From the NCBI GenBank assembly GCA_964461435.1, contig CAYWUI010000007.1:7008-71007 (forward strand): a stretch of 64,000 nucleotides of DNA, given 5' to 3'. Below, piece by piece: positions 8,967 to 64,000 of the stretch. This stretch comes from an uncultured Bacteroidales bacterium. Its GTDB lineage: Bacteria > Bacteroidota > Bacteroidia > Bacteroidales > UBA10428. Numbering within the stretch: position 1 is the stretch's first letter; every line of letters starts with the position of its first letter. Below the pieces are notes generated by a model. It was not told the origin of the DNA. It ran no database searches and worked only from the letters and a program-made list of their open reading frames with translations. The position numbers and the translations under genes were made by a program.

Positions 8967-8995
8967 TGAATTAATAATAATTTAAAATATTAGAC

Positions 8996-17248: not shown

Positions 17249-18691
17249 ATGCAGCAATTAATTATGCATATTAAAAAGGAATTTTTAAAAATATTACTAC
17301 TGATGCTTTCCATCAGCGGATTTAGCCAGGATTCGACTAATGTTGACACAACTGTCACCGATACCTCGTTTTATGTCAGAGGGAATATGGATTATAACCT
17401 TATTCTTGCCACCGAGAAAGGCTATACAAATGAAGTACTGCGTCTCTTAAACAGGGGAGCTGATATTAATACAAAAACATGGGAAGGTATAACCCCTCTT
17501 ATGTATGCAATTCAGAACCAGGATACAAACATGGTCAAGATTCTGGTATTGAACGGCGCGGATGTTGATAAAAAGCCCGATAATGGAATACCGGGCTTAA
17601 TAAATGCAGTAATGGCTGACAACCTGGATATTGCTGAATATCTTATAAGAAAGGGGGCTGATATAAACATTTCTGATAATTATGGCAATACCCCCCTGAT
17701 GTATGCAACGGCTTACGGACACCTAGTAATGGCAGATATGCTGATTTATTATGAAGCCGATGTAAATAAAAAGAATAACACCGGAACAGATGCCCTGATG
17801 ATTGCATCATTTTATGGCGATTATGACCTGGCAACCATTTTGATTGAAGCGGGGGCAACAGTTAATTCAGAAGATAATAACGGTTACTCAGCAATACACT
17901 GCGCTACACAAAATGATTATTCCGATATCGTAGATTTGCTGACAGACAATGGCGCTGATATTGACAGTAAAACTCACAAAGGTTATTCTCCATTAGCTAT
18001 TGCAGTGGTAAATAATGATTTTGAATTATCAAAACACCTGACAGAAAAGGGAGCAAATGTAAATGAAAAAATATCATTCTCTGAAAATCCGGTATCATTG
18101 GCCCGCTATTATAAAAACAGAACAATTAAAAAATTCCTGCTGCAGAATGAGGGAAGAAGAAATCCATGGCCTTCCTTTAACCAGTATAGCTTTGGCCTTA
18201 ATGTCAACTGCAACTTAAATGACTTCATGACAGGATTGGAAATAGGGTTGCAGGATAAAAAATACAATATTTCTGTAAATTCCGGACTGGTATTGCGGCC
18301 CTGGTCGATCAGGGTTCTTGAAAAAGAAACCCCGGAATTATCTTATCAATACAGGGAAAGGAGAACAACCCTCTTTCTTGGCCTGTATAAAAAAATCAAC
18401 CTGGTAAAACTTAATAACCGGTTTAACACGGGGATACTGCTGGGAGCGAAAGAGGCATATACTTTCGGGAGTTACAGGGGCTCCCTGGAAAAACCCGGCA
18501 ATAAAATGATACTGGCTCCGGGGACAGGCATATACTGGAATAATAATTTTTTTGAAGTAAATCTTATTTATGAATACCTGAAATATGATCTGTACAAAAT
18601 CAAACCGGGCAGAATAAATATATCGGTTAACTTTAAAATTAACAGAAATAAAAATAATTACATTCCAAAGGAAATAAAGGATTTTAATTAA
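17249..18691 (+). CDS. Secreted ankyrin-repeat protein with uncharacterised beta-rich C-terminal domain
   Basis: 480 aa. The likely true start is ATG 17264 (MHIKKEFLKILLLMLSISGFSQD signal peptide). There are about 7 ANK repeats (G.TPLMYA...G....V..LL..GADVN pattern, repeated). The last ~180 aa are non-ANK with alternating hydrophobic strands. Confidence 0.8.
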   Translation: MQQLIMHIKKEFLKILLLMLSISGFSQDSTNVDTTVTDTSFYVRGNMDYNLILATEKGYTNEVLRLLNRGADINTKTWEGITPLMYAIQNQDTNMVKILVLNGADVDKKPDNGIPGLINAVMADNLDIAEYLIRKGADINISDNYGNTPLMYATAYGHLVMADMLIYYEADVNKKNNTGTDALMIASFYGDYDLATILIEAGATVNSEDNNGYSAIHCATQNDYSDIVDLLTDNGADIDSKTHKGYSPLAIAVVNNDFELSKHLTEKGANVNEKISFSENPVSLARYYKNRTIKKFLLQNEGRRNPWPSFNQYSFGLNVNCNLNDFMTGLEIGLQDKKYNISVNSGLVLRPWSIRVLEKETPELSYQYRERRTTLFLGLYKKINLVKLNNRFNTGILLGAKEAYTFGSYRGSLEKPGNKMILAPGTGIYWNNNFFEVNLIYEYLKYDLYKIKPGRINISVNFKINRNKNNYIPKEIKDFN

Positions 18692-48390: not shown

Positions 48391-48436
48391 CCGGGGTAAA
48401 AGCTACAGGCTGGTACATCAGCGAATATAATTGTAC

Positions 48437-48482
48437 GCAGGTTTCTGCCGATATATTAAGCAGGTTTCTACCGATATAATTT
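48437..48482. repeat. Imperfect tandem direct repeat, 2 x 23 nt
   Basis: GCAGGTTTCTGCCGATATATTAA (48437-48459) is followed directly by GCAGGTTTCTACCGATATAATTT (48460-48482). About 19 of 23 positions are identical. It lies in the 603-bp non-coding gap between recN and susC. Confidence 0.7.
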
Positions 48483-48907
48483 TGATACCGGCAAATCACC
48501 GCTTTATATTGTCTTTGAAGATATCTGGCTGACATAGCCGGATCAGATAATGAACTTATTGATACGGACATAGAAAATATGGGATTAAATGATGTAAAAA
48601 TTTTCAATCCCCGGGATAAAATTGTTGAATTTTTAATAAATCTTCAGCAAACTATAATGATTTTTCAGTCTTTCCGCATAAAATATGATTTTTGACAAAA
48701 TAAATAATAATGGTGGTGAATATAACTTTTTTGGTGGTAAAACAACTTAAATTTGTTTTTTATGCCTCCATAACTCCCATTATAATAATCAATTAGTAAA
48801 TAAGCCGTATATTTATTTACATTGATTTCATATTTATTCAATGTATTAACTTAATTATTAAACAGTTAAAAACACTTCACTATATTTTATTTTTTAAGAT
48901 TTTTTTA

Positions 48908-48915
48908 TAGATTTG
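48908..48915 (+). promoter_or_regulatory. Candidate -7 promoter box TAGATTTG for the first SusC/SusD operon
   Basis: Exact TAnnTTTG match. The box ends 78 nt upstream of ATG 48994. Confidence 0.35.
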
Positions 48916-48993
48916 AGCTATTGAAGTAATAGAATGTTGTATCTAGTAATTTTTTTTAATTATTAGCCTATTAAAAACCTAAAATTATTATCT

Positions 48994-51900
48994 ATGAAAA
49001 AAATTACAAGTTTTTTTGTATGCTGGGTATTTATTGGCTTTGGTGTCATATTCGCCCAGGACATACAAATATCTGGAAAAGTCACCGGTGCGGATGACGG
49101 CAGTTCCCTGCCGGGTGTATCTGTATTTGTAAAAGGTACATCCATAGGAACAGCTACTGACGTAAATGGTGATTATTCTTTAACAGTTCCTCCGGACGCA
49201 ACTCTTGTGTTTAGTTCAGTTGGAATGAAAACACAGGAGATACAAGTCGCCGGACAGACTGTTATTGATGTTAGCTTGGAAACAGAGGTACTTGGTTTGG
49301 AAGAGGTAATAGTCACGGCTATAGGTATTTCGAGGGCAGAAAGAGCCCTGGGATACTCGGTAGCCACGATATCATCTGACGAAACCCTCCAGAAATCAGA
49401 ACCTGACTTGCTGAAATCACTTGAGGGTAAAATACCCGGAGTGGATATCAGAAGTACCAGTGGTGCACCGGGTTCTGCTACCCGTATCACTATCAGGGGT
49501 AATTCATCATTCCTGGGTGATAACCAGCCGCTGTTTGTTGTAGATGGCATTCCTTACAGCAATGACCAGTATACTACAACAAGCCAGAGCAGTGGTGGTG
49601 GAGCTTATGGTACCAGTCTTTCAACACTTGACCCGAACGACATTGCCTCGGTATCGGTATTAAAGGGAGCCCCTGCTGCCGCCCTGTACGGATCAAGGGC
49701 TAAAAACGGGGTAGTTGTTATTACTACAAAATCAAGAAGCATAAATCCTTCGAAAAAAGGACTTGAGGTTACGGTATCAAGCTCCGTTAACTGGGAGCAA
49801 ATATCAAACCTGCCGGAATACCAGAACACATACGGCAATGGCACTGATTTCGTTTATGCCAATGCCAATGGTTCATGGGGCCCGAGGTTCGATTCACGTG
49901 ATTCGATAGAAACATGGCCTATGTACAAAGATGCTTTCCCTGATATGTTTGGTGACAGTGTGGCATGGAAAGCATATCCCGATAACGTTAAAAATCTTTT
50001 TAAAACCGGACTGGTATACGAAAACTCGGTTAATATTGCAGGAGGAGATGAAAAATCTGCGTTTAACCTGACTGCTTCCGCATTAAACAATGACGGTTAT
50101 ATTCCTCACTCAAGCTTTGACAGGTATAGCATAAGCCTTGGCGGTAGCACGCTGCTGGCAAATAAGTTAAGGGCCGGCGGTACTTTCAGCTATACCACCA
50201 GCCAGCAATCAGGAGGTATATTTGGTAATAACCAGGCTGATGATGACAATGCCGCTTCCTCATTTGCCCGCGCGTTGTGGCTGGGCAGGGCATGGGACTA
50301 CAGCCTTCCCTATACCGATCCTGTCACAGGAGGACCCATACAGCATAACGGGCCGGGACAGTTTGACAACCCTATGTGGTCATGGGAACACAACAAGGTT
50401 ATCACTGACATGGACAGGATTGTAGGTACAATAAACCTGTCATATAACTTCACAGACTGGCTGAATGCCAGCTATGAGATTGGAGTAAACACTTTTATTC
50501 AGAGAAGGCAACAGATAATAGATAAAGAATCAAGAGGATACCAGGGACTGGGTGCTATTATTGATGACGATGTATGGCAGCAGGAAATAGAATCGAACTT
50601 CCTGTTAACCTTTAACAAGCAGTTTGGTTCAGGCATAGATTTCAAAGCCATACTGGGTCACAATGTAAACCAGCAGACACTTGACGAGCAGGCCTTCAGG
50701 GGTATACAAATTGTTACTCCCGGTATTTATGACCTTGACAATACAAACAGCGTAATCCCCTTTGGCGGTTTATACCAGCGCCAAAGATTGGTGGGAGCCT
50801 TTGCAGATGTGACAGTAGGTTATAAGAATTTCCTTTACCTGAACTTGACAGGAAGAAATGACTGGTCATCAACATTACCTGTTGATAACAGATCTTATTT
50901 CTATCCTGCTGCTTCAGCCTCATTTATGTTTTCAGAGCTGCTTAATGTTGATGAAAGTATATTGAGCATTGGAAAAATAAGGGTTGGCTGGGGTAAGGTA
51001 GGTATGGATGCCGATCCTTACAGTATTTATACAACATACATTGGTAAAGCTTCAGAATTTACTAATGATAAATATAACTATAAATACGCTGCATTCCCGT
51101 TTCTCGGACAGGCTGGCATGACCACACCTGATGAAGGTAATGACCCTGAACTTAAACCGGAGTTCAAAACAGAATTTGAAGCCGGGACCAACCTGGGTTT
51201 CATTAATAACAGGATTAACATAGACTTTACCTATTATTCAAATAATTCCAAGGATATGATATTCCCGGTTAATGTGCCGGCATCATCAGGCTACACTTCA
51301 CAATGGACAAACGTAGGGGAAATGACAAACAAAGGTGTTGACATCGGACTCGAATTAATACCTATAAAGACTGCCAGCGGCTTTACATGGAACATATACT
51401 CGACGTTTACAAAAAATATTAGTGAAGTTGTGGATGTAATTGAAGGAGAACCTCAGGAAGGTGAAGTGGAAAGGGCAGTACTGTACGGATTGTTTGGTGA
51501 TCCCAGTATTGTTGCAGAAGTCGGACAGCCTTACGGTGTGTTCCTTGGTGAAGTTAACGTAAGGGACGATGCAGGTAACCTGCTTATAAATCCGGGTAAC
51601 GGATTTCTCATCAGGTCAAGAACACAGGAAATATACGGAGATCCCAATCCCGATTACAAACTCAGTGCTATAAGTACTTTCTCATTCAAGGGATTTTCTT
51701 TACGTGCCCTTATAGATTACACCAAGGGAGGTGATGTGTATTCTTATTCTATTACCACCTTGCTGGCTAGAGGTGTTACCAAGGATACCGAGGACAGAGA
51801 ACATAGCTTCGTAATTCCCGGATATTATGGTGACCCGAACACCGAAGAACCACTGCTGGATGCCGAAGGTAACGAGATACCGAACATAACCCAGGTTAGT

Positions 51901-52221
51901 ATGAACGACCTTTACTTTGGAGAGACTTTTGCAATTAACTCTGCAGGTGAATGGAATGTATATGATGCAACAGTATTAAGATTAAGGGAAATTGCATTTG
52001 GATATGACCTGCCAAAGAAGCTTCTGAGCAAGACACCTTTCGGTATGATTAACATTAGCTTTACAGGCAGGAATCTGTGGTTCTATGCTCCGAATATGCC
52101 CGAGTACACCAATTTCGATCCTGAAGTTAATGCCTACGGAGCTACTAATGTTCAAGGTGTTGAATATACTATTGCACCCTCAGTGAAAAGATACGGTGTT
52201 AATCTTAAGTTTACTTTCTAA
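48994..52221 (+). CDS. SusC/RagA-family TonB-dependent outer-membrane transporter
   Basis: 1075 aa. After the signal peptide comes a carboxypeptidase-regulatory-like domain (ISGKVTGADDGSSLPGVSVFVKGTSIGTATDVNGDYSL). Then come the plug (EEVIVTAIGISRAERALGYSV) and a barrel ending ...RYGVNLKFTF. There is no STN/anti-sigma signalling domain. Confidence 0.95.
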   Translation: MKKITSFFVCWVFIGFGVIFAQDIQISGKVTGADDGSSLPGVSVFVKGTSIGTATDVNGDYSLTVPPDATLVFSSVGMKTQEIQVAGQTVIDVSLETEVLGLEEVIVTAIGISRAERALGYSVATISSDETLQKSEPDLLKSLEGKIPGVDIRSTSGAPGSATRITIRGNSSFLGDNQPLFVVDGIPYSNDQYTTTSQSSGGGAYGTSLSTLDPNDIASVSVLKGAPAAALYGSRAKNGVVVITTKSRSINPSKKGLEVTVSSSVNWEQISNLPEYQNTYGNGTDFVYANANGSWGPRFDSRDSIETWPMYKDAFPDMFGDSVAWKAYPDNVKNLFKTGLVYENSVNIAGGDEKSAFNLTASALNNDGYIPHSSFDRYSISLGGSTLLANKLRAGGTFSYTTSQQSGGIFGNNQADDDNAASSFARALWLGRAWDYSLPYTDPVTGGPIQHNGPGQFDNPMWSWEHNKVITDMDRIVGTINLSYNFTDWLNASYEIGVNTFIQRRQQIIDKESRGYQGLGAIIDDDVWQQEIESNFLLTFNKQFGSGIDFKAILGHNVNQQTLDEQAFRGIQIVTPGIYDLDNTNSVIPFGGLYQRQRLVGAFADVTVGYKNFLYLNLTGRNDWSSTLPVDNRSYFYPAASASFMFSELLNVDESILSIGKIRVGWGKVGMDADPYSIYTTYIGKASEFTNDKYNYKYAAFPFLGQAGMTTPDEGNDPELKPEFKTEFEAGTNLGFINNRINIDFTYYSNNSKDMIFPVNVPASSGYTSQWTNVGEMTNKGVDIGLELIPIKTASGFTWNIYSTFTKNISEVVDVIEGEPQEGEVERAVLYGLFGDPSIVAEVGQPYGVFLGEVNVRDDAGNLLINPGNGFLIRSRTQEIYGDPNPDYKLSAISTFSFKGFSLRALIDYTKGGDVYSYSITTLLARGVTKDTEDREHSFVIPGYYGDPNTEEPLLDAEGNEIPNITQVSMNDLYFGETFAINSAGEWNVYDATVLRLREIAFGYDLPKKLLSKTPFGMINISFTGRNLWFYAPNMPEYTNFDPEVNAYGATNVQGVEYTIAPSVKRYGVNLKFTF

Positions 52222-52246
52222 CTAAATAACAATAAATATTATAGCT

Positions 52247-53884
52247 ATGAAAAAAATAAAAATCTTTCTGCTAGCAACATTAATAGTATTATTAGCAGGG
52301 TGTGAAGATTTTCTCGATATAAATCATGATCCTAACAGGCCCTCGGAACCTGCAATAGATCAGTTACTCCCAGGAATAATGTATGACATTGCAGATGATT
52401 TATGTATCGGATATGGCAGAATAGGTTATGCCTGTGCAGTATATGTACATCAGCTGACAACAAGGCAACCCGAATATGATGATTATAACATTTCAGGGTC
52501 TTCGTATGCCGTTGACCAGTACTGGGAAGACTTATATGCCGGTCCGGCAGAAGATCTTGCATTATTAATACAGATGGGAGAAGAAAGTGATAACCTCATA
52601 TATGCCGGTATTGGGAAGATAATGAAAGCATATTTGTTCAGCCAGATGGTTGACCTGTGGGGAGATATACCTTATACCGAAGCAAATACCATGGGTATTA
52701 CCGAACCGGCTTTTGATAATGACGAAGATATATATACGGCATTGTTTGCTTTAATCGACGCAGGTATTGCAGACATTAACAATACTGATGCTGAAAATAT
52801 ACTTGTTCCCGGCGATGACGATTTGATTTATGGCGGCGACACCGAAAAATGGATAAAAATGGCCAATACGCTGAAACTTAAAATGTACAACCAGGTAAGG
52901 CTCGTTTCCATGTACAACCAGGCAGCAGTGGATAATTTGCTGGCAGGCGACCTGATTGGTCCCGCCGGTGATGATTTCATGCTTCCTTTTGGTACTTCGG
53001 TGGCACCTGAAAACCGTCATCCTGCATTTGTTTCAGAATACGGGGGATCACAGATAAGCAGTTATTTAAGCCCCTGGTTTTTTGAAATATTAAGCGGCTT
53101 AAATGCAAATATTCATACGGGAATTGTTGATCCCAGGATACCTTACTACTGGTGTAACCAGCTGGCCGGAGGCGCACCTGAAAATCCGCCTGAATACAAA
53201 GATGGCGACTTCAACACGATCTATTTCGGATCTACAGGTCCGAACCGTGACCATGCAGGACGTGCAAGTTTCACAATGATAGGAATATACCTCTGTGGCG
53301 GTAAATATGATGACGGCAGCGGCGGCGGCCCTCTTGGTTCTACTGACGGAACCGGTGCTGCGCCCGAAAGATTTATTACTTATGCCGACGAGTTATATAT
53401 CGAGGCCGAACTTATGCAGGCAGGATTAGTAGCAGGCGATGCCAGGGCAAAGCTGGAAAAAGCAATATATGCTTCGTTTGCCCAGGTAGATATGGTTGTT
53501 GATATGGTAGGCTCTGCCCAGGATGTCCCCGTTCTTTCGGGATCCGGAGCAGATACGGTTTATGTTACGCAGGTGCTTGCAGAGTATGATGCAGGTGATG
53601 CTGAAAAGAAAATGGAGATTGTCATGACACAGAAGTGGATCTCTGCCTGGGGTAATCCAGTGGATCAGTATACCGATTACAGAAGAACAGGATATCCCGT
53701 GATGTTTGATGCTAATTCAAACGGAGGCATCCAGTATGAAGGTCCTGACGGCACTGCTCCTGTCCCGACACAGGAAACAAGAGCCTATCCGATATCATTT
53801 CCATATGATAAGGATGAAGTTATCCTTAATGATAACTGCACTCAGAAAATTGTTTCTCAGTCTCCTGTATTCTGGGATAATTAA
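52247..53884 (+). CDS. SusD/RagB-family nutrient-binding lipoprotein
   Basis: 545 aa. Lipobox LLAGCEDFLDINHDPNRP is the typical SusD start. It sits immediately downstream of SusC. Confidence 0.93.
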   Translation: MKKIKIFLLATLIVLLAGCEDFLDINHDPNRPSEPAIDQLLPGIMYDIADDLCIGYGRIGYACAVYVHQLTTRQPEYDDYNISGSSYAVDQYWEDLYAGPAEDLALLIQMGEESDNLIYAGIGKIMKAYLFSQMVDLWGDIPYTEANTMGITEPAFDNDEDIYTALFALIDAGIADINNTDAENILVPGDDDLIYGGDTEKWIKMANTLKLKMYNQVRLVSMYNQAAVDNLLAGDLIGPAGDDFMLPFGTSVAPENRHPAFVSEYGGSQISSYLSPWFFEILSGLNANIHTGIVDPRIPYYWCNQLAGGAPENPPEYKDGDFNTIYFGSTGPNRDHAGRASFTMIGIYLCGGKYDDGSGGGPLGSTDGTGAAPERFITYADELYIEAELMQAGLVAGDARAKLEKAIYASFAQVDMVVDMVGSAQDVPVLSGSGADTVYVTQVLAEYDAGDAEKKMEIVMTQKWISAWGNPVDQYTDYRRTGYPVMFDANSNGGIQYEGPDGTAPVPTQETRAYPISFPYDKDEVILNDNCTQKIVSQSPVFWDN

Positions 53885-53915
53885 TATTATTAGTTAAAAA
53901 ATAAATTTTAAAAAC

Positions 53916-54812
53916 ATGAAGAAACTTATTTATATAATATTTGTACTGATTATCGGCTTGCTTACAACCTGTAATAAAGAGCCGGACCTCAGAATGCCAG
54001 ATGTACAGGATGCAACTTCTGCTTATCTGAAAGCGACAGAGAACTCTTCGATCTCTATAGATCTGTACGATTTAGCCGGATTTACTTTTGAGGCTACAGT
54101 CGATATTTTATTCGACGATCCCTTTCAAAAACTCGCTGTGGTTGTTGTATTTGACGGGGATTTTGCTAGCCAGTATGTGCTGACAGATAACATTACATCT
54201 GTTCCCCAGACAGTATCATATTCGATTGATGATATTGTCGCTGCTGTTGACGAATTGGATGCTGCCACTGATATAGTTGCAGGTGATGAATTCGTTTTCT
54301 TTGTAAATACAACACTTGAAGACGGATCTCTTTTACCCGGCTACACTGATAACGGTGATATAGCTTTTAGTTCAACTTTAGCTAATGCGTTGACCGGTCT
54401 GAAAGGTGCTACGTTTGATATATCCATTCCTGTTCCATGTCCTTTCAGTATAGATGACTGGCCGGGAACATATGACTTCTTTGATGTTCTCTATCCGTCG
54501 GAAAATACGACATGCGAAATAACTCTGGATACGGAAGTTGAAAACGGACTGATAGTTGATGGTATCTGGGGACTCAGCGTCGGAGCTGTTCCTTTCAAAA
54601 TTGTTCTTCATCCGGCCGACTTCTCGGTTAGCCATGAAGAACAACAAATAGGACAGGATATGTGGGGAAATGGCCCAGGTACTGCATCCAGCAGTGCAGA
54701 AAAAGGTGCAGGTACGTTCAACACGTGTACATTTACAATAAACCTGTTTCCTTATATATGTGTTGATGCAGGGTGTTTTGGAACACTTCCGATAATTCTT
54801 GTAAAACAATAA
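53916..54812 (+). CDS. Acidic surface lipoprotein in the SusE/F position (function unknown)
   Basis: 298 aa. Lipobox IGLLTTC. It is very D/E-rich and beta-rich, with several Cys in the C-terminal third. The call rests on position alone. Confidence 0.6.
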   Translation: MKKLIYIIFVLIIGLLTTCNKEPDLRMPDVQDATSAYLKATENSSISIDLYDLAGFTFEATVDILFDDPFQKLAVVVVFDGDFASQYVLTDNITSVPQTVSYSIDDIVAAVDELDAATDIVAGDEFVFFVNTTLEDGSLLPGYTDNGDIAFSSTLANALTGLKGATFDISIPVPCPFSIDDWPGTYDFFDVLYPSENTTCEITLDTEVENGLIVDGIWGLSVGAVPFKIVLHPADFSVSHEEQQIGQDMWGNGPGTASSSAEKGAGTFNTCTFTINLFPYICVDAGCFGTLPIILVKQ

Positions 54813-54834
54813 TTGACTCAACAATAACTTAAAA

Positions 54835-54858
54835 AGCGAACCGGGAGGTTCGCTTTTT
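54835..54858 (+). terminator. Rho-independent terminator after the SusC/SusD/lipoprotein unit
   Basis: AGCGAACC (54835-54842) pairs with GGTTCGCT (54847-54854) across a GGGA loop. TTTT follows, and an A-run precedes the stem, so it could act in both directions. Confidence 0.75.
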
Positions 54859-54905
54859 AAGTATATAAGAATAATCTATTTACCACTATAATTCAACTAT
54901 TGGCA

Positions 54906-57299
54906 ATGAACCGGGCAGTAGTGACTTTTATATTACTGATTTTGTTAACCGGCATACGGAATTTAAACGGGCAGGGAAGCGGTTCTATTGAATCATACCT
55001 GCCGCCTGTTAAGGTTATTGAATCAAACGGACCTGAGCCCGGTTATTTCTTTATCTCTTCAAGAGTGCTTAATACAGCTTCTGCAAAACATTTTGTCGCT
55101 ATAGTTGATAATTACGGCACTCCCGTGTATTACAGGAGAATCTACCTCGGGAACGGCGGCTTTCGCCTGCAAAAAAACGGATATCTTACATACCGTCCCA
55201 ATTTTACGGGCTTCGGCTATTTTGTTCTTGACAGTTCGTTTAACCGTATCGATACTCTGTACATGACTGGCTATGATGCTAACCAGCATGATTTTAAAAT
55301 ATCCCAAAACGGACATGCACTGTTTATTGGAAATTACTACAGAAGCGTTGATATGAGCCAGGTCGTCGAGGGTGGCAATCCGAACGCCACTGCCATAGAA
55401 CTGGTTATCCAGGAGTTTGACAGCCTCCAGAACCTCGTTTTTGAGTGGAGAAGCTGGGAGCATTTTGATATTCTTGATGCCAATGCTGCTTCCGTTAACT
55501 TTACTTCTTCAATTATTGACTATGTTCACCCCAACGGTATTGAATTTGATTCCGATACAAGCATACTTCTCTCATCACGGCATCTTGACGAGATAACAAA
55601 AATTGACAGGAGAACCGGTGATATTATATGGAGGCTCGGGGGGAAAAAAAACCAGTTTACTTTTATAAACGATACCATAGGCTTTTCTCAACAGCATAGC
55701 ATTATTAAACTTGATAACGGCAATATACTGCTTTTTGATAATGGCAATTATCATACACCGCAGCTTTCCAGTGCTGTTGAATACACGATTAATGAAGATT
55801 CAATGACTGCAACCCTTGTTAAAAGGTACCGCCCCGATTTTGATATATATGCATTTTTTGGATGCAACGCGCAAAAACTGCAGGGGGGCAATATATTACT
55901 CGGACTCGGGGAGACCGCTCCTTCCCTTATTGAGCTCCGTCCCGATAATTCTGTTGCGCTAATAATGGACTTTTCAGATTATGCATCATCCCTCCTTATA
56001 ACCAAACATCCGTGGAAAACAAATTTGTTCACTACAAATACCGATACTGTTATATTCCCGAAATATGAGTATATGACATATTACTACCAGTTAAAGCTAT
56101 TCAATAAATCGGATAATCCCATTAATATTACGGGGTATTCAAATCATACATCATCTTTTTATATAGATGAAGATTTTCCCTTTACTATTCCTCCAAATAG
56201 TGATACAATTATTAATGTAGCATTCAATCCGGTTACTGAAGGTTATGTTGAAGACGTACTGACAATTAATTCCGACATAGTAAGCGACACACTCATACAG
56301 CGAATTGCACAGCAGGTATTCCTTTCAGGTACAAGCGACGATTTCAATCCCCCGGTGGCGAATATATCCCCTTCGGATGAAGGCGCTGTACTCCTGGACA
56401 CAAAAGTATATATTGAGTTTGACGAACCGGTCAGATTTGTTGATAATTCCAGGATTGACTATACAAATATTAAAACTCTGCTGACTTTTAAAAAGACCGA
56501 TGCCCAGGGTGAGGATGTCGATTTTATTGTTACTGTGAGTACCGACAAAAGATTGATAACCCTGAAGCCCACATCATACCTTGAAGAAGAACAGGCATAT
56601 TATGTGTCTGTGGCAACCGGACTGGAAGATTACTCCGACAATGCGGCTGATGCATTCAGTGCCAGCTTTACAACAAAAGAGATACAGCCTCCGCAAATAC
56701 AAATTTTTCCCGGGGATGGATCCACAGATGTCCCAACAATACTGGAGGCCACGGCTAGCTTTAATGAACCGGTAAGATTAACTGACAACCGGGATATTGA
56801 TGATACAAACGTTGACTCGTTAATTACCTTTAAAGAATCATCAGGCCATATGAGCCACGTTGCTTTCGATGCAACGATAAATACGGGGAAGACTGAAATT
56901 ACTATTGTTCCTGATTCAGAATTAAAACCTTATACGGACTATGTAATAATAGTCAGAGATATTGAAGATTACAGTAATAATACCCTGCCTGGCAATATTG
57001 CCAAGTCATATTTTACAACAGGTGCATCCACACTTACACCGGTTATATCATTAAAGTCAGATTCCCGGTATATTATATACCCTAATCCGTGCAATGAAAA
57101 ATTTGTCATCGATTTTGGCAGCGGGGGAACAAGGATAATAAAAGTGTACAACTTTTCAGGAGATGTAATCTTTCGTGAAATGTCTGACAGTATGGTACAA
57201 ACGGTTGATTTGCGCGGTTTGCCCCCGGGCATATATTTTGTTGAAATAATTCAGACCGGTATCCCGGGAAAGACCTTGTTAAAAGTCATTAATAAATAG
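54906..57299 (+). CDS. Arylsulfotransferase (ASST)-family beta-propeller protein + PapD/HYDIN-like Ig domain + two SbsA-type Ig domains + T9SS C-terminal sorting domain
   Basis: ATG 54906 is 2 codons inside the TTG-started ORF at 54900. ASST-like motifs are NQHDF, IDYVHPNGIEFDSDTSILLSSRHLDEITKIDRRTGDIIWRLGG and QQHS...DNGN. Two repeats follow of the P.DG...V....I.I.F.EPV.......I........D form. The tail IIYPNPCNEKFVIDF...PPGIYFVEII...LKVINK matches the Por_Secre_tail pattern. Confidence 0.8.
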   Translation: MNRAVVTFILLILLTGIRNLNGQGSGSIESYLPPVKVIESNGPEPGYFFISSRVLNTASAKHFVAIVDNYGTPVYYRRIYLGNGGFRLQKNGYLTYRPNFTGFGYFVLDSSFNRIDTLYMTGYDANQHDFKISQNGHALFIGNYYRSVDMSQVVEGGNPNATAIELVIQEFDSLQNLVFEWRSWEHFDILDANAASVNFTSSIIDYVHPNGIEFDSDTSILLSSRHLDEITKIDRRTGDIIWRLGGKKNQFTFINDTIGFSQQHSIIKLDNGNILLFDNGNYHTPQLSSAVEYTINEDSMTATLVKRYRPDFDIYAFFGCNAQKLQGGNILLGLGETAPSLIELRPDNSVALIMDFSDYASSLLITKHPWKTNLFTTNTDTVIFPKYEYMTYYYQLKLFNKSDNPINITGYSNHTSSFYIDEDFPFTIPPNSDTIINVAFNPVTEGYVEDVLTINSDIVSDTLIQRIAQQVFLSGTSDDFNPPVANISPSDEGAVLLDTKVYIEFDEPVRFVDNSRIDYTNIKTLLTFKKTDAQGEDVDFIVTVSTDKRLITLKPTSYLEEEQAYYVSVATGLEDYSDNAADAFSASFTTKEIQPPQIQIFPGDGSTDVPTILEATASFNEPVRLTDNRDIDDTNVDSLITFKESSGHMSHVAFDATINTGKTEITIVPDSELKPYTDYVIIVRDIEDYSNNTLPGNIAKSYFTTGASTLTPVISLKSDSRYIIYPNPCNEKFVIDFGSGGTRIIKVYNFSGDVIFREMSDSMVQTVDLRGLPPGIYFVEIIQTGIPGKTLLKVINK

Positions 57300-57326
57300 A
57301 GTATCTTAACTGAAATATTAGCTATT

Positions 57327-59507
57327 ATGTATTATATCATTTCAGTTACAGATCAGCATATGCATAACTATTATGTCCCCAGGTTGCCGGTTCTTGCTTT
57401 ATTGCTTCTTTTTATTTTCATATTAAAAGGTTCCGGACAGCAACCTTATGCTAATACCCTGCTTCAGTATACCAGCCCCCGGAACGGATCAGCTTATGTG
57501 ACAAGGGAAAGTTCCATAATAATAAGGTTCAGTAAAAAAGTGCTTAAAGAATCTGTACCTGACTCAGCCATAATAGTTGCCGGCTCTGTAAAAGGCCGGT
57601 ACCAGGGCAAATCACACCTGTGTAAGGATGAAAAAACTCTTATTTTTGAGCATCATGATCCTTTTAAAGTTTCAGAAATAATAAATGTGACAGTGCCTGA
57701 TGGTTTATATACAACAGGCAGGGAAATGATTCCCGGCTTTGATTTTTCTTTCCATGTTACAAATAATAATGACAGCTGCAGGAATGCAGGGAACATTGGT
57801 AACACGTATAGTGAGACTTCAGAAATTCCGGATTTATATGAATGGCCGGCTGAATCATATAACGGCAGATTAAAATCAGCATATGACGACTTCCCCGCAA
57901 TATATTCTTTAAGAAGCGATAATCCTTCAGGAGGGTACTATTTCCTTGAAAAAAATTATGCGGGTTATTGCTATTTGATTATTATGGACAACTTCGGTAC
58001 CCCGATATTTTACAGGATCCTGGAGGATAATGCCCATAACTTTACCCTTCAGCCTACCGGATATCTTTCCTATTTTATTGAAAGTGAAAGAAGTTTTGAG
58101 ATTCTGGACAGTCTGTATCATGTTGCCGCTACCTACAGTATGAAAAACGGCTATGATGCTGACAGTCATGATTTCATCCTGCTGGAAAACGGACATTCAT
58201 TAATGATGGCATATGATCATCAGCTGGTTGCGATGGATAAGGTAATAGAAGGTGGTGATCCTGAGGCCACGGTGGTAGGACTGGTAATCCAGGAGCTGGA
58301 TGAGGAGCAGAATGTTATTTTTCAGTGGAGAAGCTGGGATCATTTCAACATCCTTGATACTGACGAATCTGTTGTTAACCTCACTTCAAAGTATGTTGAT
58401 TATGTTCACGGCAATTCCCTTGATATTGATTCCGACACGTCACTGCTTCTATGTTCAAAGAATCTGAACGAGGTAACAAAAATTAACAGGCTGACAGGTG
58501 AAATAATCTGGCGCCTGGGCGGCAAACATAACCAGTTCACCTTTATTAACGATGACCGGGGATTCTCAATGCAGCACTCTGCAAAAAAACTGGAAAACGG
58601 TAATCTGATAATTTTTGATAACGGGAAACTGGCAGAATCCGGATATTCCAGGGGCATTGAATATGAGCTCGATGAACAACATTATACTGTAACCCTTCTC
58701 AATGAATATAAGCATGATTCAAGCGTTTTCTCACCCCTGATGGGTAATATGCAAAGGTTACCCAACGGCAATACACTTATAGGCTGGGGTAAGAACCTGG
58801 GTGATTACGTTTGTACCGAATTTAACTCTTATGGTGCAATAACAAATGACATATATACAGATGATAATGTAAAAAGTTACCGGGTGTATAAATTTGACTG
58901 GAATCCGAAAATTATTGAGCCGGAGAAGGAGATTCTTGTATTTGATACTGTAAAACCATATAGTACTGACACAAAGGAAATAAGGATATTCAACAGGACA
59001 GATGAAAATATAATAATTAACGGCTATTCAAGGAGTAATAATCCTTTCTATGTAACGACCGCTTTTCCTGTTATAATTCCGCAAAATGACAGCCGTGTGC
59101 TGAAAATTAAATTCGTTCCCTTAGAGATTGGTGAGTTTAATGATATAATGACGATATACTCGGACGGACTGTCAGATAATAATGAGACACAAAGAATTGG
59201 AGTCCAGTTTAACATTAAAGGCGCCTCTTCCTGGGATGCTACCCCTGTAAAAAGATTACTGTCCCGCCAGAACAAGGAATTGCAGATATACCCTAATCCT
59301 GTCTCTGACCGCCTGTCAATATTCAATGCCGATAACATAGTCTACCTGGCAGTAAGAGACATACACGGAAGCGTGATTTTTTCAAAAGAAATCCGTGATA
59401 ACAGACTGACTGAAATAGACTGCTCAGGCTTCTATCCCGGAATATATATGCTGGAGTTAACTGACGGATCGGGCTTAAAATACTCCACAAAATTTATTAA
59501 GAGATAA
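57327..59507 (+). CDS. Paralogous ASST-family protein with rearranged architecture: N-terminal SbsA-type Ig domain + ASST propeller + PapD/HYDIN-like Ig domain + T9SS C-terminal sorting domain
   Basis: 726 aa. An alternative start is ATG 57360 (MHNYYVPRLPVLALLLLFIFIL...). The propeller core is highly similar to the upstream gene (VDYVHGNSLDIDSDTSLLLCSKNLNEVTKINRLTGEIIWRLGG, MQHS). The tail QIYPNPVSDRLSIFN...PGIYMLELTD...KFIKR is a T9SS CTD. Confidence 0.8.
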   Translation: MYYIISVTDQHMHNYYVPRLPVLALLLLFIFILKGSGQQPYANTLLQYTSPRNGSAYVTRESSIIIRFSKKVLKESVPDSAIIVAGSVKGRYQGKSHLCKDEKTLIFEHHDPFKVSEIINVTVPDGLYTTGREMIPGFDFSFHVTNNNDSCRNAGNIGNTYSETSEIPDLYEWPAESYNGRLKSAYDDFPAIYSLRSDNPSGGYYFLEKNYAGYCYLIIMDNFGTPIFYRILEDNAHNFTLQPTGYLSYFIESERSFEILDSLYHVAATYSMKNGYDADSHDFILLENGHSLMMAYDHQLVAMDKVIEGGDPEATVVGLVIQELDEEQNVIFQWRSWDHFNILDTDESVVNLTSKYVDYVHGNSLDIDSDTSLLLCSKNLNEVTKINRLTGEIIWRLGGKHNQFTFINDDRGFSMQHSAKKLENGNLIIFDNGKLAESGYSRGIEYELDEQHYTVTLLNEYKHDSSVFSPLMGNMQRLPNGNTLIGWGKNLGDYVCTEFNSYGAITNDIYTDDNVKSYRVYKFDWNPKIIEPEKEILVFDTVKPYSTDTKEIRIFNRTDENIIINGYSRSNNPFYVTTAFPVIIPQNDSRVLKIKFVPLEIGEFNDIMTIYSDGLSDNNETQRIGVQFNIKGASSWDATPVKRLLSRQNKELQIYPNPVSDRLSIFNADNIVYLAVRDIHGSVIFSKEIRDNRLTEIDCSGFYPGIYMLELTDGSGLKYSTKFIKR

Positions 59508-60210
59508 ACACAGTATTTATCAGGGAATTGTAATATTCAACAATCGTTTTAAGGTCAGCTACCTTATTTATTTTAAGATTATTTGACTTGATAAATGACA
59601 TTATCGCCGGGGAATAATTATCAAAAAACTTCATAAATCTCTTTTTATTACTGTTCACAAATAAAACTTTTTCTCCTTCCATTATGTACAGCTCTTCCTG
59701 AACATAATTATGATCAATTGACGAATATGCCCCGTATTTTACTTCACTTTCAGGCTTTGGCCTGTAAACATAGGTCTTTAATAATTTTGCTTCCCCGTCA
59801 TATAATATCTGCGCTATTCCATATAATTTTGAACCTGTTGCTTTAACATTAAGGTTGATAAACCTGTGACTTGCCCCTGCTTCATCTTCCCATGAAAATT
59901 CTTTTATTCTGTATAAATCCAGAATTTTTATCTCTCCGGAAAGCTGTATCTCGAGATTGTTATTCTTCAGATCATATTTAACAGGATAGTTTTCAATTGT
60001 CTGATTCGAAATAAGGGTAAATTTACCCATATGCCATTCATCATCGATGTAATAGGAATCATTACTTCCGGCCTCTTTGGTATTAAAATCTATAATTATT
60101 TCATACGGCGTTCCCAGTATTGTATAATCGTGGGGCGACCACTGGGAGTAAAGACAGCCAGTAAGAGATAAAAGTAACAAACCCTGCATAATACAATTTC
60201 CCCCGATCAT
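59497..60210 (-). CDS. Hypothetical lipoprotein or secreted protein (237 aa)
   Basis: The likely start is ATG at 60189 (MQGLLLLSLTGC lipobox). I recognise no motif. Its 3' end overlaps the convergent ASST gene by 11 nt. Confidence 0.55.
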   Translation of the reverse strand: MIGGNCIMQGLLLLSLTGCLYSQWSPHDYTILGTPYEIIIDFNTKEAGSNDSYYIDDEWHMGKFTLISNQTIENYPVKYDLKNNNLEIQLSGEIKILDLYRIKEFSWEDEAGASHRFINLNVKATGSKLYGIAQILYDGEAKLLKTYVYRPKPESEVKYGAYSSIDHNYVQEELYIMEGEKVLFVNSNKKRFMKFFDNYSPAIMSFIKSNNLKINKVADLKTIVEYYNSLINTVFIS

Positions 60211-60412: not shown

Positions 60413-63400
60413 ATGAATAAACTCTTTGTTTGCATATGCATCTTACTTTTTCTGCCGGCTCAGATTTTATTCTCCCAGACCCGCAATATTTCGGGAAGAG
60501 TCATCAGTTCGGAGGATAGCCTGGGCCTTCCCGGTGTTACGGTGATTGTAAAGGGTGCGGATATCGGTACTATTACAAACATTGAAGGTATGTACTCTCT
60601 TGATATTCCGGCAGAAAGTGATTCACTTGTATTCAGTTTCATCGGTATGCAGTCACTGGTAAAGGATGTACAAGGTAAGAACATAATAAATGTTACGCTC
60701 AGGCCAAAGTTATACGAGGTAAATGAAGTGGTTGTCACCGCGCTGGGAATAAAAAGGGCAAGCAAAGCCCTGGGATATTCCGCAACAAGTGTTTCAAGCA
60801 AGGATTTAACCGGGGGAAGGGACAGGAGCATGCTTAACTCCCTTCAGGGGAAGGTAGCAGGTGTAAATGTCAGTTCTGCTTCGGGGGCTCCCGGTGCATC
60901 CTCAAGGATACTTCTTCGCGGCATATCAACTCTGGGAGGTTCCAACCAGCCTCTTTTTGTTATTGACGGCGTACCTGTAAATAACAGCTATACAGGCAGT
61001 ACATCTATTAACGGAGGCACCGACTTTGGCAATAAGATTAACGATCTTAATCCCGATGATATTGAGAATATATCTATACTTAAAGGCGCCTCGGGTGCAG
61101 CACTCTATGGTTCAAGAGCAGCTAACGGCGTAATTATTATTACAACGAAAAAGGGCGAACAGCTTAAAGGAAAGAAAAAATCCGAAATTACTGTTTCAGG
61201 TTCAGTAAGATTTGAAGAGCCTTTACGGACAATAAAGTACCAGAATGAATTCGGGCAGGGAATATACGGTGATGCTGTTAACTATGAGAACATGAGCTGG
61301 GGCCCTGCATTTGATAACAAATTGCACTACTGGGGTTACGAGGTGGATAACACACTGAGGGTAAAGCCATATGTCGGTCTACCCAACAACGTGAGAGAAT
61401 TTTTCGATACCGGGGAAAATTATAATAACTCTATTTCCATATCAGGAGGTAATGAACAGACAACTTACTATATATCGTATTCAAATGTGATGCACGACGG
61501 TATATTTCCGACTAATTCCGACAGCTATAACAGGCATACACTGTCAGCCAGGGGTACCCATATAACCTCATCCAGGCTGAGCAGCTCATTTTCGATAAAC
61601 TACATAAAAAAGAACAATAAATCAGTTCCAACAGGACAGGGTGAAAACTCGGTATATAACCAGGTGATGCAGACACCCAGGGATATAAGCCTGCTGGAAC
61701 TTGAAGATATTGACAGCAAATGGAATAATCTTGACAACTATTACTCGTTATATACTGTGAATCCCTATTTTATTCTGAAAAAAAACGGGAATACCAATAA
61801 TGAAGACAGGGTATATGGAAGTGTTGACCTTGATTACCGCATTGCTGAGCCCCTGTCACTTAAACTGCGCCTTGGTGGTGATGTTTCCAATGAGCAGTTA
61901 AAACAATGGCGTGCTATAATAGAACCGGGAGGTAATAATGAGTTTTCTGCAGTATTCGAACCGGGCAGCGTAAGTGAGGGATCAAGTTATGTCATGCAGC
62001 TGAACAGTGACCTTATACTTAACTACAATAAGGAATTTGGGAACTTCAGCATAGATGCCATAATTGGCCATAACCTGAACCATAGGACTGTTAAAAGCAT
62101 ATCAGCATCGGTAAATGATCTTACTATACCGGACTTCTTCCAGCTAAAAAACTCATCCGAAACTCCTTTTGCCAGTGAGAGTTACGTGAAACGCAGGCTT
62201 GTTGGTGTTTTCAGCAGCCTGGATTTATCTTATAAAAGCATCCTGTTTGTTACTATGACAGCCAGAAATGACTGGAGCTCAACCCTGCCCCTTAAAAATA
62301 ATTCATTCTTCTATCCCGGGATTAGTGCCTCACTAATATTCACGGAATTATTTCCTTCGATCAGGAAACACTTTCCTTATGGTAAATTAAGAGCTGCTTT
62401 TACAAGGGTAGGTAACGATGCGCCGGTATATAGTATTCATTCTGTATTTGTTACCGGCGGTCATTCGGACGGGTATGGATATTTAAGATATCCTTTGCCT
62501 AACGGCGTAAACTCCTATGAAGTAAGTAACCTTATAGGAAATGAAGAGCTGAAGCCGGAGCTTACAACAGAATTTGAAGCCGGCACTGACCTCAGGTTCT
62601 TTAATAACCGCCTGGGCATTGATGTTTCATATTATGATAAAAACACAACGAATCTTATATGGCCGGCACCGCTTCCATCTTCGTCGGGATATACATACAA
62701 AACCGTTAACCTCGGAAAGATGACAAATAAAGGGGTTGAAGCCCTGCTTAATCTCACTCCTGTTCAGAGAAACCGCTTCCAGTGGGATATATCATTTAAT
62801 TATACTAAGAATAACAATAAGCTTGTAGAACTGACAGAGGGACTGGACAGGATTGAAATTACCGGAATAAGCGTTGAGGGCGGCCAGCAAATTAATTTCG
62901 TAGCCAAGCCGGGAAGGACCGTTGGCATATTTGAAGGACGTGAAGTAAAACGCGATGACCAGGGACGGATTGTGGTTGATAATACGGGTTTGCCAGTTGC
63001 GGCCGACTCCCTTGTTGAATACGGCGACAGGGAGTATAATTTTATTGCCGGTATCAATACAAAATTGTCATGGAGGGGGCTTTCAATATCCGGCACAGTT
63101 GACATAAGGCAGGGAGGAATCATGTATTCAAGGACAAAGGAAATTTCAGTATGGGCCGGTACCGTACCATTAACACTTTATAATATGAGAGAACCTTTTA
63201 TTATACCTAATTCAGTATATGAAACAGGAAGAGATGAGAATGACGAGCCCGTATACGCTGAAAACAATATACCAATTGATGCGGTTCATATAGTCGATTA
63301 CTGGGGAAACGGCGGTACCGAACTGGATGGTAATGCTTTAATTGATAAATCATACATAAAACTGAGGGAAGTTATTCTGTCATATTCCGTTCCTGAAAAG

Positions 63401-63598
63401 CTGCTGGACAAACTGCCGATAGAGACTATACAGCTTAGCGTAATAGGAAGAAACCTGTTATTGTGGACACCAAAAGACCAGTATTATATTGATCCCGAAC
63501 TTACAACATTCGGAAATGATCTGGAGGCTGACTTCGGAGAATATGGCGCACAGCCATCGGTAAGAAGCGTAACTTTCAGCCTCATTCTTACTTTATAA
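60413..63598 (+). CDS. SusC/RagA-family TonB-dependent outer-membrane transporter (second copy)
   Basis: 1061 aa. It has the same architecture as the first (ISGRVISSEDSLGLPGVTVIVKGADIGTITNIEGMYSL; plug NEVVVTALGIKRASKALGYSA). It has no STN domain and is clearly a diverged paralog. Confidence 0.95.
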   Translation: MNKLFVCICILLFLPAQILFSQTRNISGRVISSEDSLGLPGVTVIVKGADIGTITNIEGMYSLDIPAESDSLVFSFIGMQSLVKDVQGKNIINVTLRPKLYEVNEVVVTALGIKRASKALGYSATSVSSKDLTGGRDRSMLNSLQGKVAGVNVSSASGAPGASSRILLRGISTLGGSNQPLFVIDGVPVNNSYTGSTSINGGTDFGNKINDLNPDDIENISILKGASGAALYGSRAANGVIIITTKKGEQLKGKKKSEITVSGSVRFEEPLRTIKYQNEFGQGIYGDAVNYENMSWGPAFDNKLHYWGYEVDNTLRVKPYVGLPNNVREFFDTGENYNNSISISGGNEQTTYYISYSNVMHDGIFPTNSDSYNRHTLSARGTHITSSRLSSSFSINYIKKNNKSVPTGQGENSVYNQVMQTPRDISLLELEDIDSKWNNLDNYYSLYTVNPYFILKKNGNTNNEDRVYGSVDLDYRIAEPLSLKLRLGGDVSNEQLKQWRAIIEPGGNNEFSAVFEPGSVSEGSSYVMQLNSDLILNYNKEFGNFSIDAIIGHNLNHRTVKSISASVNDLTIPDFFQLKNSSETPFASESYVKRRLVGVFSSLDLSYKSILFVTMTARNDWSSTLPLKNNSFFYPGISASLIFTELFPSIRKHFPYGKLRAAFTRVGNDAPVYSIHSVFVTGGHSDGYGYLRYPLPNGVNSYEVSNLIGNEELKPELTTEFEAGTDLRFFNNRLGIDVSYYDKNTTNLIWPAPLPSSSGYTYKTVNLGKMTNKGVEALLNLTPVQRNRFQWDISFNYTKNNNKLVELTEGLDRIEITGISVEGGQQINFVAKPGRTVGIFEGREVKRDDQGRIVVDNTGLPVAADSLVEYGDREYNFIAGINTKLSWRGLSISGTVDIRQGGIMYSRTKEISVWAGTVPLTLYNMREPFIIPNSVYETGRDENDEPVYAENNIPIDAVHIVDYWGNGGTELDGNALIDKSYIKLREVILSYSVPEKLLDKLPIETIQLSVIGRNLLLWTPKDQYYIDPELTTFGNDLEADFGEYGAQPSVRSVTFSLILTL

Positions 63599-63626
63599 TT
63601 GTTACCGGTATTGTTAATAGAATAAT

Positions 63627-64000
63627 ATGAGAATTCATACTAAAATACAAAATACAGTCCTTTTACTTGTCGCTTTACTCCTCTTAGTGTCGTGTGAGGA
63701 CTGGCTTGATATTAACAAGGATCCCAATAATCCCGATGAAGCTAATGAAGAGCTGACCCTGGCAGCAGGAATATCATCCCTCGCCTATGTATATGGAGGC
63801 AAATACCAGGTTCTTGGAGCACTATGGTCACAGCACTGGACCCAGTCCCTGGGTGCATCTCAATATTCGGGACTGGATTCATACGATATAAACAGCAGCA
63901 CCTTTGATAACAGGCAGTTTGGTGAACTTTATTCGGGAGCACTTATGAATCTCGAGTACGTCAAAAACCTGGCCCGTCAAAACGGCAACTGGAACTATTA
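63627..64000 (+). CDS. SusD/RagB-family lipoprotein, 5' part only (runs off the right edge)
   Basis: Absent from the ORF track because it is open-ended. From ATG 63627 it reads MRIHTKIQNTVLLLVALLLLVSCEDWLDINKDPNNPDEANEELTLAAG..., the typical SusD lipobox and start. Confidence 0.88.
   Translation, partial: MRIHTKIQNTVLLLVALLLLVSCEDWLDINKDPNNPDEANEELTLAAGISSLAYVYGGKYQVLGALWSQHWTQSLGASQYSGLDSYDINSSTFDNRQFGELYSGALMNLEYVKNLARQNGNWNY

Follow-up and report, generated by a model that had tools for sequence, protein, structure and literature searches.

Predicted Cpz4-like arylsulfotransferase genes next to an enzyme-less SusC/SusD-lipoprotein operon in an uncultured Bacteroidales bacterium

The window analysed here is a stretch of 64,000 nucleotides from an uncultured Bacteroidales bacterium (contig CAYWUI010000007.1, assembly GCA_964461435.1). 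The locus under study occupies its positions 48994 to 59507, where the genes of a SusC/SusD pair and a lipoprotein (together, the triad) are followed on the same strand by two large genes encoding paralogous proteins of the arylsulfate sulfotransferase (ASST) family, ASST-A and ASST-B ( Table 1 ). An earlier note, made from the sequence alone, had suggested that these genes form a capture system for a non-glycan or sulfated/phenolic substrate. Profile searches and inspection of the lipobox recovered all three triad genes where that note had placed them. The terminator that it had reported at 54835-54858 was likewise found, as part of a slightly longer hairpin.

Table 1. Genes and sequence features of the locus and its downstream flank (window positions).
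Feature	Position	Strand	Evidence or remarks
SusC1, SusC/RagA-type TonB-dependent transporter, 1075 aa	48994..52221	+	TIGR04056 603 bits (cut-off 368); Plug, CarbopepD_reg_2
SusD1, SusD-like_2/RagB-type lipoprotein, 545 aa	52247..53884	+	PF12771 E=1.4e-50; PF12741 E=2e-34
298-aa lipoprotein, third triad member	53916..54812	+	lipobox LLTTC-NKEPD
Intrinsic-terminator-type hairpin	54827..54862		A-tract, 16-bp stem, T-tract; -24.6 kcal/mol
ASST-A, 797 aa	54906..57299	+	Pfam/NCBIfam profiles, AlphaFold2 model
ASST-A catalytic residues (by alignment)	55287..55697	+	H128 55287-55289; H208 55527-55529; N210 55533-55535; R225 55578-55580; H264 55695-55697
ASST-B, 726 aa	57327..59507	+	Pfam/NCBIfam profiles
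237-aa exported protein (ORFm237)	59497..60210	-	convergent with ASST-B, stops overlap by 11 nt
SusC2, SusC/RagA transporter	60413..63598	+	TIGR04056 657 bits
SusD2, SusD-like ORF	from 63627, runs off the window	+	pairs with SusC2

SusC1 has orthologues in several of the genomic loci of relatives that were compared (numbered L001 onwards; homologous proteins carry P-numbers), namely L003, L009 and L085-L090, at 56% identity or 1200-1600 bits. SusD1 has 2617 homologues at E<=0.001, the best 120 of which span 47-100% identity. The 298-aa lipoprotein, whose homologues come after SusD1 in L001, L003, L009, L078 and L085-L090, had no family match in Pfam or NCBIfam, and its AlphaFold2 model is poor (predicted local distance difference test score, pLDDT, 49) and unsuited to a fold search. 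Its C-terminal ~130 residues resemble those of the c12/c35 lipoproteins encoded beside ASSTs in L004-L007 (hhalign probability 78%, E=2e-5). This domain, common to the ASST-adjacent lipoproteins and absent from Pfam, bears the motif C-x5-D-[FW]-x-G-x-[YW] ... W-G-[EQ] and occurs, in addition to the window, at L004 5028-6230 and 10603-11436 and at L006 8325-9146. In loci of the L004 type, the ASST pair is bracketed by two lipoproteins of this kind.

The order of the genes recalls a canonical polysaccharide utilisation locus (PUL), with SusC and SusD in tandem followed by a surface lipoprotein, a hairpin after the genes for the binding proteins, and secreted proteins encoded next to them. In contrast to such loci, it lacks carbohydrate-active enzymes (CAZymes): no glycoside hydrolase, polysaccharide lyase, carbohydrate esterase, other lyase or sulfatase family of Pfam was matched by the products encoded at 34-64 kb, nor by ten of the largest ORFs upstream, in agreement with the earlier note. 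Also missing are an STN signalling domain on SusC1, as judged from Pfam and NCBIfam profile searches, and any regulator ORF (hybrid two-component system, or extracytoplasmic function sigma factor/anti-sigma factor) in the ~600 nt upstream of SusC1 (48391-48993). An Rfam scan matched just two tRNAs, with neither a riboswitch nor a leader RNA in the regions upstream of SusC1, the ASSTs and SusC2.

Both ASST-A and ASST-B match the family profiles PF05935 (E=5.6e-25, 88.6 bits, and E=2.8e-25, 89.6 bits, respectively; cut-off 24.2) and PF14269 (E=7.5e-18, 65.4 bits, and E=2.3e-23, 83.5 bits; cut-off 27), and they are 37% identical to each other. The ASST-A ORF opens at a TTG (54900), the ATG at 54906 being the likelier start since it yields a signal peptide (residues 1-23). 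This is followed by a six-bladed beta-propeller (~30-372, nt 54993-56021), an Ig-like sandwich (~375-476), two Big_5 domains (~483-705, E=1.2e-19) and a type IX secretion system (T9SS) C-terminal domain of type A (722-797). An AlphaFold2 model of ASST-A built with 60 homologues (pLDDT 91.4) shows the same propeller, sandwich and Big_5 domains, with a disordered linker ahead of the C-terminal domain. In ASST-B a Big_5 domain (48-130) precedes the propeller (~190-528), after which come a HYDIN/ASH-type Ig domain (530-622) and the type-A sorting domain (654-726). The ASH-type Ig matches of both proteins lie below cut-off.

Hydrophobic N-terminal signal peptides are present in the two proteins, and their sorting domains exceed the cut-offs of TIGR04183 (36.0 bits in ASST-A, 36.3 in ASST-B; cut-off 23) and PF18962 (40.1 and 37.8 bits; cut-off 27), with Por_Secre_tail at E=4e-10 in ASST-A. 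From these signals we infer that the T9SS would export both and that their action would be extracellular. The ASST-type cores, Ig-like decorations and secretion tails proposed in the earlier note are thus all borne out, the ASH/HYDIN-type Ig domains at sub-threshold level, and we accept both proteins as predicted members of the ASST family. A CAZyme, lyase or sulfatase identity for the propellers was rejected: searches of Pfam, the PDB and Foldseek gave no such match, and the ASST catalytic set is intact. No T9SS-exported ASST and no linkage of an ASST to SusC/SusD was found in the literature on ASSTs in combination with SusC, PULs or T9SS.

The catalytic set was read from HMMER alignments. 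In E. coli AssT, His252, His356, Asn358, Arg374 and Thr501 bind the sulfuryl group and His436 is the nucleophile that forms the sulfo-histidine (2026 review, PMC13426309). Residues H128, H208, N210, R225 and H264 of ASST-A align to H252, H356, N358, R374 and H436 of AssT, and the corresponding set in ASST-B is H281, H361, N363, K378 and H417; the position matching Thr501 did not come out of the alignment for either protein. These residues fall within the motifs that had been quoted from the sequence in support of ASST membership, and the active site is conserved. The five columns are kept in 57-59 of 60 family members, the His at the sulfo-histidine position (H264, H417) in 59 of the 60. An AssT/Cpz4-type ping-pong chemistry is, from this conservation, most likely for the pair. 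A homologue in which all five positions are replaced (P0088: H128A, H208S/N, N210S, R225A, H264T) is probably a non-catalytic derivative.

The closest solved relative is 9KF4/9KF6, identified through its PDB title as Cpz4, the caprazamycin-biosynthesis sulfotransferase of Streptomyces (phmmer E=7e-27 with ASST-A and ~6e-34, precisely 5.6e-34, with ASST-B; family profile E=3e-49). It is also the top PDB match of the ASST-A model in Foldseek (E=4e-21, TM 0.65-0.68 by target), at 21-23% identity over aligned columns. Cpz4 (Streptomyces sp. MK730-62F2) shares the propeller and the H/H/N/R/H motifs (QHD, DYVHxN, SGR/SSR, QH), and likewise does without the N-terminal sandwich of the E. coli type (EcAST). 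It differs in being a 472-aa single-domain enzyme encoded in an actinomycete antibiotic gene cluster, whereas the window proteins, at 726-797 aa, add a signal peptide, Ig-like and Big_5 domains and a T9SS domain, and are encoded on a Bacteroidales chromosome beside SusC/SusD. In the two-step sulfation of caprazamycin, Cpz4 acts downstream of a step that depends on 3'-phosphoadenosine-5'-phosphosulfate (PAPS). Its preference is for the sugar hydroxyl of glycosides over phenols (PMC13426309), so that glycosidic acceptors must be considered for ASST-A and ASST-B as well.

Two other characterised enzymes were compared. AssT of E. coli CFT073 (PDB 3ELQ/3ETS/3ETT), the archetype of the PAPS-independent aryl sulfotransferases, is also a six-bladed PF05935 propeller, with aligned counterparts for the catalytic His436 and for His252, His356, Asn358 and Arg374, yet its sequence similarity is weak (profile E=2e-10; ASST-B alone E=0.006), and it is a periplasmic dimer with an N-terminal beta-sandwich, encoded with dsbL/dsbI, none of which is seen in the window proteins or locus. 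The ASST-A propeller begins at about residue 30, straight after the signal peptide, the window holds no Dsb genes and the proteins group with Cpz4, which excludes the EcAST-type subgroup. The lipoprotein ASST of Phocaeicola (Bacteroides) vulgatus (BvASST, BVU_0583) is the nearest precedent in the Bacteroidota (PMC12809581). It too is targeted beyond the cytoplasm, and it uses a sulfo-histidine to pass sulfate from one phenolic compound to another (PMC12809581, PMC13426309), but it carries an SPII signal instead of being T9SS cargo, and it is a single gene with no SusC/SusD context reported.

Counting the window, all 14 loci examined that carry the triad or a variant of it have such a hairpin behind the lipoprotein gene, its sequence differing from locus to locus: the window, L001, L003, L009 and L078; L004, L006 and L007, which carry a variant SusC/SusD; and L085-L090, where ASSTs occur in L089 only. 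Its presence in every such unit, with or without ASSTs, argues that the hairpin is the predicted terminator of the SusC-SusD-lipoprotein operon itself. Apart from this hairpin, scans for sigma-70 promoters and terminators gave matches at chance level. The ASST genes, separated from each other by a hairpin-free gap of 27 nt, have the triad terminator on one side and the convergent 237-aa gene on the other, a placement like that of an insertion. In genomes without ASSTs the hairpin stands between convergent genes, in the manner of a bidirectional terminator.

In order to assess the linkage from the side of the importer, the genomic context of six SusD1 orthologues (L085-L090, 49-63% identity) was compared. 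The triad is kept in all six, and ASSTs accompany it only in L089. In the other five (L085, L086, L087, L088 and L090) it occurs without them, which indicates that the importer does not need the ASSTs. What follows the triad varies: ASSTs in the window, L078, L089, L001, L003 and L009; only a convergent gene of 23x aa in L085 and L086, with another SusC/SusD after it in L085; a T9SS trypsin-like protein and then cysD-cysN in L087; a T9SS BNR/Sortilin protein and then cysD-cysN in L090; and unrelated genes in L088. Different T9SS cargo genes thus fill the same post-triad position in different genomes. In L086 and L088 no enzyme gene at all accompanies the triad, in a further departure from the canonical PUL. 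The occupant of the slot in L087 (13210-15855, minus strand) is an 881-aa protein with a weak trypsin-like domain.

From the side of the ASSTs, a scan of GTDB species genomes yielded 77 loci in metagenome-assembled genomes (MAGs) of Bacteroidales, Ignavibacteria, Kapaibacteria, Calditrichota, Zixibacteria and Eisenbacteria, in all of which ORFs were called and searched with the window proteins. SusC was found within 10 kb in seven loci, directly upstream and on the same strand in six of these, and was absent at that distance in the remaining 70. In a neighbour-joining tree of 124 propeller cores, every SusC-linked copy falls into one of two clades, A-type and B-type. Many loci without SusC hold tandem arrays of 2-6 ASST paralogues beside unrelated genes (e.g. 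L039, L060). In Ignavibacteria and elsewhere the neighbours include DUF3298, DUF3078, LemA, M48 peptidase, Fe-S protein, oxidoreductase, amidase, MscS and Usp genes, and also histidine kinases and ABC transporters, a mixture that offers no functional clue.

The family itself is large. A search with the propeller alone gave 7920 clusters (50% identity) at a threshold of E<=1e-3 and 1397 when this was tightened to E<=1e-30, and nearly all of the best 120 full-length matches combine ASST, Big_5 and Por_Secre_tail domains. The T9SS sorting domain and the catalytic residues are kept in the window pair and in the close homologues examined, which come from Bacteroidota, Ignavibacteria, Kapaibacteria, Calditrichota, Zixibacteria and Eisenbacteria. 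Arrays of 4-6 ASST-T9SS paralogues with no SusC nearby were seen in MAGs of Bacteroidetes, Zixibacteria and Ignavibacteria (L039 561-13454, L060 6572-18217, L056 5263-13673), and four proteins (P0257, P0258, P0261, P0264) hold two ASST cores in one chain. T9SS-type ASST genes also occur in bins labelled Hyphomicrobiales (L023) and Chlorobiota (L007, L049); as L007 has the synteny of the Bacteroidales island described below, its Chlorobiota label is probably a binning or taxonomy error.

Downstream of the ASST pair, the window contains a second SusC/SusD pair, so that there are two pairs of adjacent susC and susD homologues (48994-53884, and 60413 to past 64000), SusC2 being 34% identical to SusC1. 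The earlier note had placed this pair 900 bp further on. SusC2 does begin at 60413, but the gap of 906 bp is not empty, as it holds the minus-strand 237-aa gene. The product of that gene had no Pfam or NCBIfam match; homologues were found in L078 (384 bits), L089 (150 bits), L086 (31 bits) and L051 (32 bits), and the positional counterparts in L085 and L003 showed no detected similarity to ORFm237. By eye, the 266-aa ORF of L003 has in common with it an N-terminal signal-like stretch and a C-terminal Y(Y/C)NS motif. Homologues or counterparts adjoin the triad in L078, L089, L086, L085, L003 and L051, with or without ASSTs.

As look-ups of SusC2, P0001 and P0228 by exact sequence gave no record, the region past 64000 was inferred from collinear relatives, L078/L079 (~80-82% nucleotide identity) and L080 (83% over 61383-64000). 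L078/L079, whose ASST-A has 78% amino acid identity, are collinear with the window from CoaBC to SusC2, except that RecN and SusC1 are separated by the insertion of an FTCD gene. In L078 and L080 the genes after SusC2 encode, in order, SusD2, an Ig-like protein of 221 aa, a protein of 194 aa and a BNR/Sortilin T9SS protein of 1058 aa; cysC-cysD-cysN come next, all three above the NCBIfam cut-offs. This continuation contains no ordinary CAZyme battery that would turn the locus into a conventional PUL with the ASSTs as bystanders. The sole candidate is the BNR/Sortilin protein, weakly glycosidase-like and below threshold (NF045728 'F510_1955 family glycosylhydrolase' 137 bits, cut-off 175; GH74 E~1e-6). 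This BNR/Sortilin-Vps10 double-propeller protein recurs in the island (L080 5074-8250, L078 from 21416 onward, L090 13789-16962, L081 8121-12056), with a length of ~1060 aa in L078 and L090 and 1311 aa in L081; its gene comes after SusC2/SusD2, or, in L090, directly after the SusC1 triad.

Genes cysD-cysN, with or without cysC, are also found at most a few genes away from the ASST block in L004, L005, L007, L008, L051 and L009, a proximity that is suggestive in a family acting on sulfate. In L008 (8924-12033) an ASST gene is directly followed by cysC-cysD-cysN, and in L080 (8268-11131) the three cys genes stand at the edge of the island. However, cysD-cysN flank the triad in the ASST-less L087 and L090 as well. 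Given this and the shared housekeeping neighbours, the adjacency follows the island and not the ASSTs, and it was rejected as independent evidence for a function in sulfur metabolism. None of the loci examined was found to contain a PAPS-dependent sulfotransferase, a gene for carrier synthesis, an exporter or a sulfatase.

Taken together, these data favor two adjacent units over a single PUL, with the ASST pair forming a separate Cpz4-like sulfotransferase unit in a variable slot, a reading that we regard as on balance probable. The first unit (48994-54862) would be a self-contained, enzyme-less SusC-SusD-lipoprotein import operon ending in its own intrinsic terminator, and the second (54906-59507) would consist of the two genes for paralogous, PAPS-independent ASST-family sulfotransferases. 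Since there is no PAPS outside the cell, exported ASSTs would use a ping-pong mechanism with environmental sulfate esters: an ester such as an aryl sulfate would sulfurylate His264 of ASST-A (His417 of ASST-B), and the sulfuryl group would then move from this histidine to a hydroxylated acceptor, which, by analogy with Cpz4, may be not only a phenol but also a sugar hydroxyl on a glycoside. As accessory cargo, the pair would fill the variable slot of an island (RecN, SusC/SusD units, cysC/D/N) conserved in one Bacteroidales lineage, and it may modify what the SusC/SusD proteins next to it import, the importers being independent of it; a functional tie of the ASSTs to these importers or to cysCDN is possible, yet unproven and non-obligatory.

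Several observations weigh against this reading. Among the 11 A/B-clade loci that are informative, that is, with enough upstream sequence, nine have SusC-SusD-lipoprotein directly upstream (the window, L001, L003, L009, L078, L089, L004, L006 and L007; not L011 and L017), a stronger retention than one might see in a neutral passenger. The linkage is kept in L089 although one ASST is inverted, and in L004, L006 and L007 it involves a non-orthologous SusC/SusD (25-28% identical to SusC1). Only ~45 nt, without a recognisable promoter, separate the hairpin from the start of ASST-A, so that read-through from the SusC1 operon could couple both units. Finally, ASST-B has a Lys (K378) at the position equivalent to Arg374. 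All but the last of these points favor the dedicated capture system of the earlier note, in which the surface ASSTs would act on a sulfated or phenolic, non-glycan substrate, and SusC1/SusD1 or SusC2/SusD2 would import the product, in a CAZyme-free 'PUL'. The C-terminal domain that the lipoproteins flanking the variant SusC/SusD share with the 298-aa lipoprotein points in the same direction, and read-through across the short distance to the ASST-A start would allow joint expression. Yet the same-strand linkage, well kept within the A and B clades, is lacking in most of the ASST family and in five of six orthologous SusD-side loci, so that the claim of conserved linkage holds only in half. The nine linked loci are positional homologues in related Bacteroidales MAGs, with RecN/CoaBC/DUF4835 on one side of the island and cysDN/NlpC-P60/7TM-HD/LolA/FtsK on the other; sharing one conserved chromosomal context, they are not independent observations. 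A conserved terminator, moreover, divides the two units and ends the triad whatever follows it. A dedicated capture system therefore seems unlikely to us, even if worth keeping in mind.

The location of cysD-cysN near the ASST block in six loci, and by collinearity just past the window, could alternatively mean that the ASSTs belong functionally with cysC-cysD-cysN. They might do so in a two-step sulfation resembling that of caprazamycin, where CysDNC would supply the PAPS that charges a small carrier, which after its export would serve the extracellular ASSTs in sulfating surface or external acceptors, or by harvesting organosulfates whose sulfate feeds into CysDNC. This is very doubtful given the cysDN genes adjoining ASST-less triads, the lack in any locus of the additional components sought, and the Ignavibacteria and other phyla that carry ASSTs without cys neighbours. 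It is just as improbable that the propellers are no transferases in vivo and serve as binding proteins, as sulfatase-like hydrolases with water as the acceptor, or in another undescribed activity. The natural substrates and physiological roles of PAPS-independent aryl sulfotransferases are generally unknown, and an early fungal 'aryl sulfatase II' acted as transferase or hydrolase depending on the acceptor (PMC13426309). Degenerate members such as P0088 exist, and the multiple Ig-like domains recall adhesin or spacer architectures. Against this stand the five catalytic positions retained in both paralogues (with Lys for Arg in ASST-B) and in nearly all relatives aligned, and the absence of similarity to CAZyme, lyase or sulfatase families.

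Under the two-unit reading, a locus of the type 'SusC/D plus odd enzyme' would resolve into a widely conserved enzyme-less operon and swappable T9SS cargo genes, which calls for caution in PUL biology. The window ASSTs belong to a large uncharacterised branch of the family, and because extracellular members must rely on environmental sulfate esters, they would offer a testable way into the question of how organosulfates are turned over in anoxic habitats. The activity of their closest characterised relative on a sugar hydroxyl widens the candidate substrates to glycosides and glycans. A more ambitious proposal, that the ASST pair, the enzyme-less SusC/SusD-lipoprotein importers and cysC-cysD-cysN constitute one organosulfate-handling pathway, is a long shot. 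If true, extracellular sulfuryl transfer would load sulfate onto, or strip it from, phenolics or glycosides, enabling the import of these compounds or of their sulfate, and environmental sulfate esters would be used without formylglycine sulfatases. The secreted Cpz4-like ASSTs of the Bacteroidota and allied phyla, a very large family, would thereby also gain their first physiological role.

The rest of the window is occupied by housekeeping genes: DPP-IV, ThrRS, signal peptidases, phosphate transporters, V-type ATPase, FtsK, LolA, 7TM-HD, NlpC/P60, a TrxB-like protein, BamD, RpoZ, CoaBC, DUF4835 and RecN. Two neighbouring signal peptidase I (S26) paralogues at 7620-10390 (plus strand) are unusually long (448 and 464 aa). 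Also, a gene at 17249-18691 (plus strand), with a PHO4-type transporter gene on one side and, at a greater distance, a Na/Pi cotransporter gene on the other, encodes a 480-aa protein made up almost entirely of ankyrin repeats (Ank_2 E=2e-54), which is unusual for free-living Bacteroidales.

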